Of a stretch of DNA of 64,000 nt, positions 35,562-38,072 are shown one piece after another (position 1 is the stretch's first letter; every line of letters begins with the position of its first letter). A model generated the notes under the pieces. The model was not told the DNA's origin. It ran no database searches and saw only the letters and a program-made list of their open reading frames with translations. The DNA comes from Escherichia coli. GTDB lineage: Bacteria > Pseudomonadota > Gammaproteobacteria > Enterobacterales > Enterobacteriaceae. The DNA is taken from the NCBI RefSeq assembly GCF_016026235.1, contig NZ_CP065613.1; one strand, 5' to 3'. The translations under genes and the position numbers were made by a program.

Positions 35562-35796
35562 GTCGCCAATCCTGGAAAGAGTATTAAGCGTAAATGATGC
35601 CAGAGCGCAAAGCGTTCAATGGTTTGAGTAAGGGGCAAAACCGGCGGGATTTAGGACGTTTATGCAAAAATAGGTTCAGTTGCAGAACGTTTTGCGAACC
35701 ATTTTCCAGTTCTGATATTTAGCCATTTAGCCTATAGAATCGCCCACCGCCTCTCTGTTAGTTTGCTAATAATTAAATTATTACAAAGGTGATCAA

Positions 35797-37305
35797 ATGG
35801 AATGGCAACAATTGCTTAACTGCAACCGTCGGAAAGATAATCTAAAAAAAACCAACATAGCATTTTTACATCCCCTTGCTAGCGGAAGACAAGAGATCGA
35901 ACGGGATTACGACCGATTACTTTTTGCTGCGCCAACTCGTCGCCTTGCGGATAAAACACAAGTTTTCCCGTTAGATCAAAATGACAGCATACGGACGAGA
36001 CTGACTCATTCTCACGAAGTAGCAAACTTTGCTCGCGGAATAGGAATGAGACTCGCTTTCGAGATGAAGGAGCACATCTTTGGCGAAATACCCACGGGGA
36101 TTGTCGTTGAACGCGACGTTCCTGCTCTGTTAGCAGCGATCGGACTGGCACACGATCTCGGTAATCCACCATTTGGGCATCAAGGTGAAGCAGCGATGCG
36201 CGCATGGTTTAATAAAAATCTTCCAGGTCTTCTTGATAAAGAAGTAAACAGCGAAATATATAACGACTTTCTGCAATTTGATGGAAACTCACAAACCCTG
36301 CGCCTGGTTACCAAATTACAAATTATTAACGATAACTTTGGTCTGAATTTGACCTATGCCACGCTGGCTGCACTGATCAAATATCCCCGAGCTTCATATT
36401 CATCGGACAAACATTGGAAAAAGCACGGTTTTTTCTATTCTGAGCATGAGGTTGTCATGGATGTCTGGCAGCAAACGGGCCTTGGCGTACCAGGTAATGA
36501 TGCCGGTTGCCGCCACCCATTTACCTGGATAATGGAAGCTTGCGACGATATTGCCTACTCTGTGCTTGACGCAGAAGATACCATCAAGAAAGGATTTGCC
36601 TCATACCAGGATTTGCGTGATTTTTTGATGTCACAATCCGGGGCGAACGATGTAATTGAAAATGTTATTAAAGCTGTAGAGGCCAAAAATGACGCCTGGA
36701 AAGAGCAAAGAAATGCACTTTCACCGGCAGAAATTAATGAACTCAGTATGCAAATGTTCAGAGTGTATGCCACCAGTGCATTGATTAATGCCGTAGTAGA
36801 AGCCTTTCGCGAACAATTACCCACGCTGATGCAGCGTGACTGCCCGTTCAAAGATTTAATCTCGCAAAGCAAAGGTCACGCCCTCTGCACTGCCCTGAAA
36901 ATGTTCGACCGAACACGAGGCTACCTTCATCGTTCAGTCTTGCAACTGGAACTTAGGGGGTCTAATTACATTACTAACTTGATGGATATGCTCTGGATTG
37001 GCATCCATGGACACAAAACAAAGAAAGAACGAGACGGAGAACGCGAGTCCGCGTCTGCAGATAACCTTTTTGTTTCTCGTGAAGAATACCTGTCGGATAC
37101 TCCCTTTGGTCGCTATGCTTACGGGACAATATCTGAAAATTATCGCCGTGTGTTTGAAGATCCCGCCAATACACTCCCTGTTCTTTATAAAGAAGCGCAG
37201 TTGCTTACCGACGCAATCTCAGGCATGACGGATAGTTATTTAATGCGCCTTCACGATGAGCTAAAATCACTGTATGAATGTGGTCTCAAACACCCAACAG
37301 CTTGA
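35797..37305 (+). CDS. Dgt-family HD-domain dNTP triphosphohydrolase homologue (diverged dGTPase paralogue), accessory
   Basis: 502 aa; motifs KTQVFPL, RTRLTHSHEV, AHDLGNPPFGHQGE, FDGNSQTLRLV, PFTWIMEACDDIAYSVLDAEDT, ISGMTDSYL parallel E. coli Dgt; SD AGGTGA; AT-rich. Confidence 0.75.
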   Translation: MEWQQLLNCNRRKDNLKKTNIAFLHPLASGRQEIERDYDRLLFAAPTRRLADKTQVFPLDQNDSIRTRLTHSHEVANFARGIGMRLAFEMKEHIFGEIPTGIVVERDVPALLAAIGLAHDLGNPPFGHQGEAAMRAWFNKNLPGLLDKEVNSEIYNDFLQFDGNSQTLRLVTKLQIINDNFGLNLTYATLAALIKYPRASYSSDKHWKKHGFFYSEHEVVMDVWQQTGLGVPGNDAGCRHPFTWIMEACDDIAYSVLDAEDTIKKGFASYQDLRDFLMSQSGANDVIENVIKAVEAKNDAWKEQRNALSPAEINELSMQMFRVYATSALINAVVEAFREQLPTLMQRDCPFKDLISQSKGHALCTALKMFDRTRGYLHRSVLQLELRGSNYITNLMDMLWIGIHGHKTKKERDGERESASADNLFVSREEYLSDTPFGRYAYGTISENYRRVFEDPANTLPVLYKEAQLLTDAISGMTDSYLMRLHDELKSLYECGLKHPTA

Positions 37306-38026
37306 ACAGCGTATCGCCGATTTTTTTACGCTTAGTGATGAGCATAAGAAAGCCAGAGTATTACTTGATACTCTGGCCTGTTCCTGTCCGGCCTGGATTT
37401 TTGGCGGGATGGTGCGTGACTTAGGCTTGTTTGGCGTCGAAGGATTCTCTTCAGACCTTGATATCGTCATCGGTCGCTCGCGTGAGGAACTCTTCCAGAC
37501 ATTGGCTGAACTGCCCGTCAAACAACTGCGTTTTAATAAGTTTGGTGGGATCCGTTTTCGTTATCACGACTTCGAATTTGATATCTGGAACCTCAATGAG
37601 ACATGGGCATTTCGGGAAAAACTTATATTTTGTGAGGATGAATCAAGTCTGTTAAACACTACGCTAATGAGTTGGGATGCCGTGCTCTATGATCTACGTA
37701 GTGAAAAAATTATCAGTAAAGATAATTATTTGACCGATTTAAATCGCAGACATCTTGAACTTGTTCTTCATACTAACCCCAATCCAAGCGGTTCGGTAAC
37801 GAAGATTTTACGCACTATTTTTACTAAGCAGGTAAAGAGTTTAGGGCCGGAACTCTGTCATTTCTTGCACCATGAACTGACGAAAAAACGTTATGAAGTA
37901 TGGCATCACTACGATGTACTGCACTACCAATCATCGTCATTTTCTCGTTCACAATTTAATGCATTGATAAATTTACTGGCGCAACAATCACGCTTCGCTG
38001 ATCTAAAATTATCAAACTACAAATAA
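37274..38026 (+). CDS. pol-beta superfamily nucleotidyltransferase of tRNA-nucleotidyltransferase/PcnB head type (GGxVRD ... DxD)
   Basis: 250 aa; WIFGGMVRDLGLFGVEGFSSDLDIVIG parallels Cca [24 protein letters not shown]; later SWDAVLYDL / KDNYLTDLNRRHLEL parallel RRDLTINALA / DPYNGLGDLQNRLLRHV; 32-nt overlap with upstream HD gene. Confidence 0.65.
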   Translation: MNVVSNTQQLEQRIADFFTLSDEHKKARVLLDTLACSCPAWIFGGMVRDLGLFGVEGFSSDLDIVIGRSREELFQTLAELPVKQLRFNKFGGIRFRYHDFEFDIWNLNETWAFREKLIFCEDESSLLNTTLMSWDAVLYDLRSEKIISKDNYLTDLNRRHLELVLHTNPNPSGSVTKILRTIFTKQVKSLGPELCHFLHHELTKKRYEVWHHYDVLHYQSSSFSRSQFNALINLLAQQSRFADLKLSNYK

Positions 38027-38072
38027 CCATCCTCCACGTACTCCCTGAACGAAACCCGCCACCCTGCTATCG

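Follow-up and report, generated by a model that had tools for sequence, protein, structure and literature searches.

Sequence evidence for a chromosomal Clover anti-phage system between flhB and cheZ in Escherichia coli

A two-gene insert between flhB and cheZ

We analysed a stretch of 64,000 nucleotides of Escherichia coli DNA (contig NZ_CP065613.1 of assembly GCF_016026235.1), hereafter the window, to whose positions all coordinates refer. Our subject is a pair of overlapping open reading frames (ORFs), ORF1 and ORF2, inserted between flhB and cheZ, which on the sequence evidence very probably form a chromosomal copy of Clover, an anti-phage defence system made of the dGTPase CloA and the nucleotidyltransferase (NTase) CloB. 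The flhB start (35561) and the cheZ stop (38114), both on the minus strand, are 2,552 bp apart in the window, against a spacer of 201 bp in K-12 W3110. Pairwise alignment to this related genome, a comparison proposed in a preliminary description made from the letters of the window, gives 35661/35662 and 38099/38100 as the junctions, with 87 bp of REP-like K-12 spacer swapped for the following elements:

35662..38099, no strand: inserted segment, 2,438 bp, GC content 0.44, delimited by alignment to K-12 W3110
35797..37305, plus strand: cloA (ORF1), 502 aa, predicted dTTP-activated, p3diT-inhibited dGTP triphosphohydrolase
37274..38026, plus strand: cloB (ORF2), 250 aa, NTase of the Pol-beta superfamily with the head and neck fold of class II CCA-adding enzymes and poly(A) polymerases (PAP)
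37274..37305, plus strand: cloA/cloB overlap, 32 nt

The GC content of 0.44 compares with 0.52 and 0.53 in the 5-kb flanks, and windowed values range from 0.38 to 0.50 across the insert and from 0.52 to 0.59 in the flanks. The ORF listing, the annotation and the alignment contain no insertion sequence (IS), integrase or flanking repeats in the insert, and an Rfam scan of it matched no family. Much of the preliminary description therefore stands as it was given: the two ORFs with their lengths and overlap (recovered in a six-frame ORF listing), the gap of about 2.55 kb, AT-rich and with ORFs on the strand opposite to flhB and cheZ, the lack of IS or integrase at the locus, and the quoted peptide motifs, all of which occur in the translations. 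Its GC-normal backbone on both sides holds for the composition of the flanks and fails at the cheZ boundary, where K-12-like sequence restarts just 14 nt ahead of the stop codon.

ORF1 as an orthologue of CloA

Judged by its sequence, ORF1 (WP_038338857.1 in RefSeq) is an orthologue of CloA. Its best matches in a PDB sequence search are the SeCloA entries 9p8s-9p8v (E 2.8e-189, 633 bits), titled 'DNTP triphosphohydrolase' and holding 8 chains each, with generic dGTPases next at roughly 1e-50; 4x9e, the E. coli Dgt, matches at 2e-38 and the Shewanella standalone dGTPase 9p8w at 2e-24. These CloA and Shewanella structures were deposited with the Clover study (PMC12265719), the preprint of which prints the former as 8P9S-8P9V, and the entries found are 9p8s-9p8v. 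Identity between ORF1 and SeCloA is 61% over 499 columns, and 65.7% over the aligned columns of the profile alignment. ORF1 passes the cutoff of TIGR01353, the dGTP triphosphohydrolase subfamily (285 bits, cutoff 152), and fails those of PRK04926, the housekeeping Dgt equivalog (271 bits, cutoff 405), of PRK01096 (358 bits, cutoff 439) and of NF041026, the NCBIfam antiphage_dGTPase (183 bits, cutoff 400). The PADLOC dGTPase model, which has no curated cutoff, matches it at 1e-70. The preliminary description of ORF1 as a diverged paralogue of the housekeeping dgt agrees with both the distance to E. coli Dgt and the PRK04926 score.

We mapped the published SeCloA residues onto ORF1 through an HMMER alignment; the SeCloA numbering check passed for all residues but Q377, printed as such in the preprint (PMC12265719) and E in the deposited SeCloA sequence. 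The metal ligands H71, H119, D120 and D250 (H69, H117, D118 and D242 in SeCloA) are all kept, as is the catalytic dyad H128/E131 (H126/E129), so that the alignment check on catalytic residues suggested in the preliminary description came out in its favour; ligands and dyad are invariant in 24/24 aligned CloA sequences. The dGTP contacts are likewise kept in the residue map. All nine residues of the dTTP site are retained (R49, D63, Q175, K264, S446, N448, A473, T478 and Y481, for R47, D61, Q172, K256, S418, N420, A444, T449 and Y452 in SeCloA), as are nine of the ten of the p3diT site (R31, R36, D39, R40, F43, N77, N184, Q319 and R322, from a SeCloA pocket of T25, R29, R34, D37, R38, F41, N75, N181, Q311 and R314). 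Catalytic and ligand positions are invariant or nearly so among the 24 CloA sequences, and in 16/16 of the lineage found beside cheZ, compared with 23.6% of invariant columns overall in the CloA alignment. From this residue conservation we infer that ORF1 would hydrolyse dGTP, with activation by dTTP and inhibition by p3diT.

ORF2 as a putative p3diT synthase

ORF2 (WP_050428686.1 in RefSeq) is predicted, by analogy with characterised CloB proteins, to synthesise p3diT, the inhibitory signal. It aligns over its full length with SeCloB (35% identity, 60% positives, E 4e-55) and with the CloB of E. coli H5 (35% identity, E 1e-54), and its D61 and D63 fall on D71 and D73 of SeCloB, which were mutated in the Clover paper. 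In the preprint itself, this catalytic mutant is D71A/D73A in the text and Fig. 1, and D61A/D63A in the legend of Fig. 3 (PMC12265719). The NTase signature GG..RD..SDxD..D (G44, G45, R48, D49, S60, D61, D63 and D103) is invariant in 25 homologues, from a family of more than 50 members in Enterobacter, Cronobacter, Pseudescherichia, Atlantibacter and others.

The fold of ORF2 was established by structure prediction because sequence searches gave weak or sub-threshold matches: a PDB profile search returned weak motif-A matches to PAP and CCA heads alone (E 0.014), and the NCBIfam PcnB match stayed below threshold. The predicted structure (pLDDT 91) is modelled as the head and neck of a class II NTase, with the tRNA CCA-adding, A-adding and CC-adding enzymes as nearest folds, and about 200 residues of ORF2 align to targets of 344-517 residues. 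The model and the invariant signature back the earlier assignment of ORF2 to the CCA-enzyme-head type, for head and neck alone. Motif B (RRD, ribose discrimination) is itself absent from ORF2; at the position that the preliminary description had set against it, the family has an invariant W134-D135, an equivalence by sequence colinearity.

The operon as a probable Clover system

The architecture of the system is already known, having been published in 2025-26 as Clover; the preliminary description was aware of no described system with this structure. Yamaguchi et al. (bioRxiv 2025; PMC12265719) described more than 650 dNTPase-NTase operons under this name, made of the dGTPase CloA and the NTase CloB, with a cutoff of E 0.005 in the search for CloB homologues. 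A 2026 review (PMC13434031) cites the work as Nature 2026;652:978-985; before it, Nicastro et al. (NAR 2023) had already predicted such an arrangement of two genes, as cited in PMC12265719. In that study, CloA is an octameric HD dGTPase, inactive alone, with dTTP as its specific activator; the octamer resembles a 'four-leaf clover', and its interfaces include a pi-stack of H263 and lengthened C-terminal helices (PMC12265719). Cellular dTTP climbs during infection by T5-like phages (Demerecviridae), and CloB makes p3diT, which binds in a neighbouring pocket, also at the dimer interface of CloA, and thereby inhibits its activation (PMC12265719). Active-site mutants of CloB are highly toxic, and HD mutants of CloA lose defence (PMC12265719).

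The mechanism proposed for the window copy comes from experiments on orthologues; what the computations show for the copy itself is its homology, the conservation of key residues, the fold, the pairing of the genes and their accessory distribution. The CloA encoded by ORF1 would be an oligomeric HD-domain dGTPase, inactive unaided. An infecting phage (T5-like in the published work) would raise cellular dTTP, which would bind allosterically in a pocket between the subunits of the CloA dimer and complete the active site; activated CloA would then hydrolyse dGTP and starve phage DNA replication. CloB would constitutively join two dTTP into p3diT (5'-triphosphothymidyl-3'5'-thymidine), the pocket of which, adjacent to that of dTTP and mutually exclusive with it, would lift the dTTP threshold for activation and spare the uninfected cell from dGTP depletion. 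The pair would be toxin-antitoxin-like because the loss of CloB activity is toxic. The observation made in the preliminary description is confirmed and its interpretation partly supported: the reading as an NTase-regulated dNTPase with a defence or toxin-antitoxin-like role stands, and the analogies with a split CCA enzyme, AMPylation and tRNA extension do not.

The window pair also differs from the other known systems closest to it. Standalone anti-phage dGTPases (Tal et al. 2022; 9p8w; NF041026) appear, from sequence, to share with ORF1 the fold of HD-domain dGTP triphosphohydrolases and defence by dGTP depletion, whereas ORF1 has a dedicated NTase partner and predicted allosteric sites. They are single-gene, constitutively active hexamers (PMC12265719), and Tal et al. 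(2021/2022) tested single-gene dGTPases alone and mention no NTase partner. Housekeeping E. coli Dgt (4x9e/6oiy) belongs to the same superfamily and has the HD motif, the H/E dyad and the HD_assoc C-terminal motif, but ORF1 is a distant paralogue of it, accessory rather than core and encoded elsewhere in the genome. Class II tRNA nucleotidyltransferases and PAP I (3h37, 1miv, 3aql, 4wby) have a head like that of ORF2, with GGxVRD...DxD; ORF2, in contrast, is without the tRNA-binding body or tail domains, and its orthologues make a dinucleotide signal rather than extending RNA 3' ends. In Hailong (HalB, oligo-dA) and Panoptes/MISS (2'3'-c-di-AMP), a constitutive nucleotide signal similarly restrains a toxic effector until infection relieves or overrides it, but the NTase families and signals are others, and the effector is an ion channel or membrane effector instead of a dGTPase.

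Gene pairing, distribution and the flhB|cheZ slot

The pairing of the two genes across genomes, a check put forward in the preliminary description, is consistent: a CloA homologue lies directly upstream of CloB in 21/21 species-genome loci of a CloB-family scan, a few operon copies being disrupted, and the same pair is found on a conjugative plasmid of Phaeobacter (49% identity for CloA, 34% for CloB). The order cloA then cloB on the same strand recurs in the Salmonella and H5 operons, and the 32-nt overlap, which possibly couples translation of the two genes, is repeated in two related operons (L025 and L026). The insert, over at least 80% of its length, occurs in 106 of 5,426 complete E. coli genomes (about 2%), which fits the earlier view of an accessory rather than core element; it is always chromosomal, in single copy, and 98.2-100% identical, and its carriers include ST648-type clinical strains. 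In S. flexneri SFBU1023 (L017 3743-7461), both genes are split by inserted DNA, cloA into residues 1-128 then 469-502 and cloB into residues 1-128 then 114-250, and many short CloB fragments from Shigella are deposited as 'hypothetical protein, partial'.

The position is itself conserved. In 15 of the 21 species loci, cheZ is the immediate neighbour of the operon, with the orientation unchanged, and in 12 of those 15 flhB lies on the opposite side; several metagenomic contigs have the same arrangement. The genera with the operon in this slot include Escherichia/Shigella, Citrobacter, Pseudescherichia, Enterobacter, Atlantibacter, Dryocola and Pluralibacter (at least 8 named). In the slot loci compared (L007-L020, L022 and L025-L027, from other Enterobacteriaceae), identity to the window is 40-53% for CloB (up to 73% in metagenomic contigs), 61-80% for CloA, with 61-68% across the named genera, and 74-91% for the flanking CheZ and FlhB. 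There are no mobile-element scars because the operon occupies a conserved, integrase-free slot across genera. This suggests either an old acquisition, after which the operon stayed in place, diverged fast and was lost repeatedly, or an exchange of alleles through homologous recombination within the conserved flagellar genes on both sides. That the flhB|cheZ lineage is a distinct, long-resident chromosomal subtype of Clover is a tentative proposal, to which we give somewhat less than an even chance. As transcription of cloA diverges from the flhBAE promoter region, the system might share its regulation with motility. Nothing relevant turned up in a literature search on flhB/cheZ as a defence hotspot.

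Elsewhere in their genomes, the operon is found in Erwinia, Aeromonas, Photobacterium, Terracidiphilus, on the Phaeobacter plasmid and in the Salmonella and H5 islands. On the Phaeobacter piscinae plasmid pP14_b (L002 3944-5962), genes for a Gp37/Gp68-family protein and TcmP (three-Cys-motif partner) are directly upstream of the operon and a caspase-family protein is nearby, which gives this conjugative plasmid what looks like a small island of defence genes.

The window allele and the tested alleles

We recovered the Salmonella operon for a direct comparison, its CloA being 99% identical to the PDB chain. The locus (L029 8001-10203) is 2,203 bp long and the operon of E. coli H5 (L030 7001-9200) 2,200 bp, the exact lengths stated in the Clover paper. 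The H5 operon belongs to an island with an integrase, located at tRNA-Sec (selC) beside yicJ, and its allele is Salmonella-like and present in 8 of the 5,426 E. coli genomes. We considered that the window operon might be the H5 system, and rejected it: the operon of the H5 genome is a different allele. E. coli has two lineages of Clover, of which that of the window is about 13 times commoner than the H5 type. The window operon resembles the tested ones in its gene order, its overlapping genes and its accessory low-GC locus, and it differs from them in its integrase-free slot at flhB|cheZ, where the tested copies are in islands with integrase or IS (at selC in H5), and in a CloA of 502 aa, against 471 aa, with a charged loop and a Q for H263.

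The Salmonella and H5 operons share an upstream set of genes (L029 3489-7671 and L030 2434-6616): a small hypothetical protein, a fusion of a PfkB kinase and a nucleoside deoxyribosyltransferase, a QueC-like protein, another hypothetical protein, an OGG-type glycosylase and a Dam-like methylase. This set may be another defence module acting on nucleotides or by DNA modification.

Weighing the identification

Several observations weigh against reading the locus as a functional Clover system with the published chemistry. The window allele differs from both tested operons (Salmonella SA20044414 and E. coli H5), its proteins being 59% (CloA) and 35% (CloB) identical to those of H5. The remaining residue of the p3diT site, T25, is L27 in ORF1, at a position that varies across the CloA family. 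Outside the conserved sites, Q271 replaces H263 of the octamer pi-stack (Q in 7/16 and H in 9/16 of the cheZ-slot lineage), D455 replaces Q427, and I177 replaces L174. The C-terminal bundle contains one further difference:

37015..37095, plus strand: lineage-variable charged loop, CloA residues ~407-433, defined from alignments

The loop is some 20 residues longer in ORF1 than in SeCloA and sits just upstream of the dTTP-binding S446 and N448; together with the change at H263, it could alter the oligomeric state or the activation threshold of CloA. Rich in K, E, R and D, with 0 to about 21 extra residues, it tells the CloA lineages apart. For ORF2, the Pfam family PolyA_pol (PF01743) matches at 16.5 bits, under its gathering score of 23, and the gene is unmatched in PADLOC v2.0.0, which contains no CloB model. 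This silence is uninformative about function because the library predates Clover. Finally, the flagellar neighbourhood is decaying, as the preliminary description had claimed: flhB carries W345* (34527-34529, minus strand), which leaves 344 of 382 aa. The nonsense codon was called against E. coli FDAARGOS_943, which is 99.95% identical and has flhB intact and cheZ frameshifted; different flagellar or chemotaxis genes are thus decaying in sister strains.

The most serious alternative, albeit an unlikely one, is a member of the Clover family with different chemistry, in which CloB would make another oligonucleotide signal, or CloA would sense another dNTP or act on another substrate, with a different range of phages as the result. 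The 35% identity of ORF2 to characterised CloBs, the charged loop and the substitutions at H263, Q427 and L174 all leave room for this. Yet all contacts that read the bases are invariant across the lineage, be it for p3diT (D39, N77 and Q319), for dTTP (R49, D63, T478 and Y481) or for dGTP (Q55, V56, Q129 and Y254), and even a distant Xanthomonas CloB has been reported to produce p3diT (PMC12265719). The decay of the flagellar region raises in turn the idea that the operon is a non-functional relic, in line with the flhB nonsense codon of the window strain, the frameshifted cheZ of its nearest genome and the interrupted genes and many fragments of S. flexneri and Shigella. We regard this as very unlikely, since both ORFs of the window are full length with all catalytic residues intact, the operon is full length and nearly identical in the 106 genomes, and a CloA left intact beside an inactive CloB should poison the cell.

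If the pair were instead a split or rewired CCA-like module or a toxin NTase module, ORF2 would produce no free signal but act on tRNA 3' ends in the manner of MenT or covalently nucleotidylate ORF1 in the manner of MNT-HEPN. The nearest folds of ORF2 are indeed tRNA CCA-, A- and CC-adding enzymes, and motif A of PAP and CCA heads is its sole match at the sequence level in the PDB; MNT-HEPN, MenT and the CD-NTases of CBASS provide neither its nearest fold nor a characteristic partner, and we give this explanation a slighter chance still. Least credible, to the point of being negligible, is the idea that ORF1 is an anti-phage dGTPase of the standalone kind (Tal-type), or else another housekeeping Dgt, with an unrelated gene beside it by chance. 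The PADLOC dGTPase model and the RefSeq labels, 'dgt' and 'hypothetical protein', would agree with it, but the scores of ORF1 with the antiphage_dGTPase and PRK04926 models fall well below their cutoffs, its match to 9p8w reaches no more than 2e-24, the two genes are adjacent in all 21 genomes and overlap, and their presence is limited to about 2% of E. coli genomes. A chromosomal copy of Clover, with the conserved sites of CloA, the NTase fold of CloB and the constant pairing of the two, remains by far the best account of the locus.

Other features of the locus and its surroundings

Three further features of the insert could bear on its expression:

35712..35740, plus strand: candidate sigma-70 promoter CTGATA-17-TAGAAT, from a consensus scan; weak
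35786..35791, plus strand: Shine-Dalgarno-like AAGGTG, 5 nt upstream of the cloA ATG, read directly
38070..38096, no strand: GC-rich hairpin in the spacer where cloB and cheZ converge, insert-borne, without U-tract

The 135 bp upstream of ORF1 (35662-35796) are part of the insert in the K-12 alignment, so the candidate promoter falls in insert-borne DNA, and from 35662 on the sequence is not part of the flhB promoter region, which the preliminary description had extended up to ~35730. The promoter consensus scan found 2 sites where 5.0 are expected by chance, which is not significant. The 87-nt spacer at 38027-38113 folds at -28.6 kcal/mol (z = -4.6). The hairpin had been taken for the cheZ terminator; since it lies in the insert, it is not the ancestral one. 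It has no U-tract, and a terminator consensus scan, which like the promoter scan did no better than chance, called no intrinsic terminator there; it is possibly a bidirectional terminator or a stabiliser of mRNA ends.

Other low-GC stretches of the window, at 12001-14000, 50001-52000 and 58001-62000 (0.41-0.44, for a window average of 0.49), may be further acquired segments. The genome of FDAARGOS_943 is rich in IS (IS600, IS2) and has a 1,262-bp IS600 between yecV and a gene of the LprI family (L001 555-1816); the window is without that copy, at ~31378-31382.

Implications

Clover is poorly covered by the current annotation of E. coli and Shigella: RefSeq and PGAP name CloA 'dgt' and CloB 'hypothetical protein', and PADLOC v2 would report an isolated dGTPase. 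The two exact proteins of the window are on 196 and 629 public contigs, none of them labelled Clover. The commonest allele of Clover in E. coli is that of the window, distinct from the H5 type on which experiments were made, and its location between flhB and cheZ amounts to a defence pair embedded at the boundary of core operons without the scars of mobile elements. With the system itself already described, the residual interest is modest and concerns the dominant lineage of Clover in E. coli, its conserved slot in the core genome and its poor current annotation.

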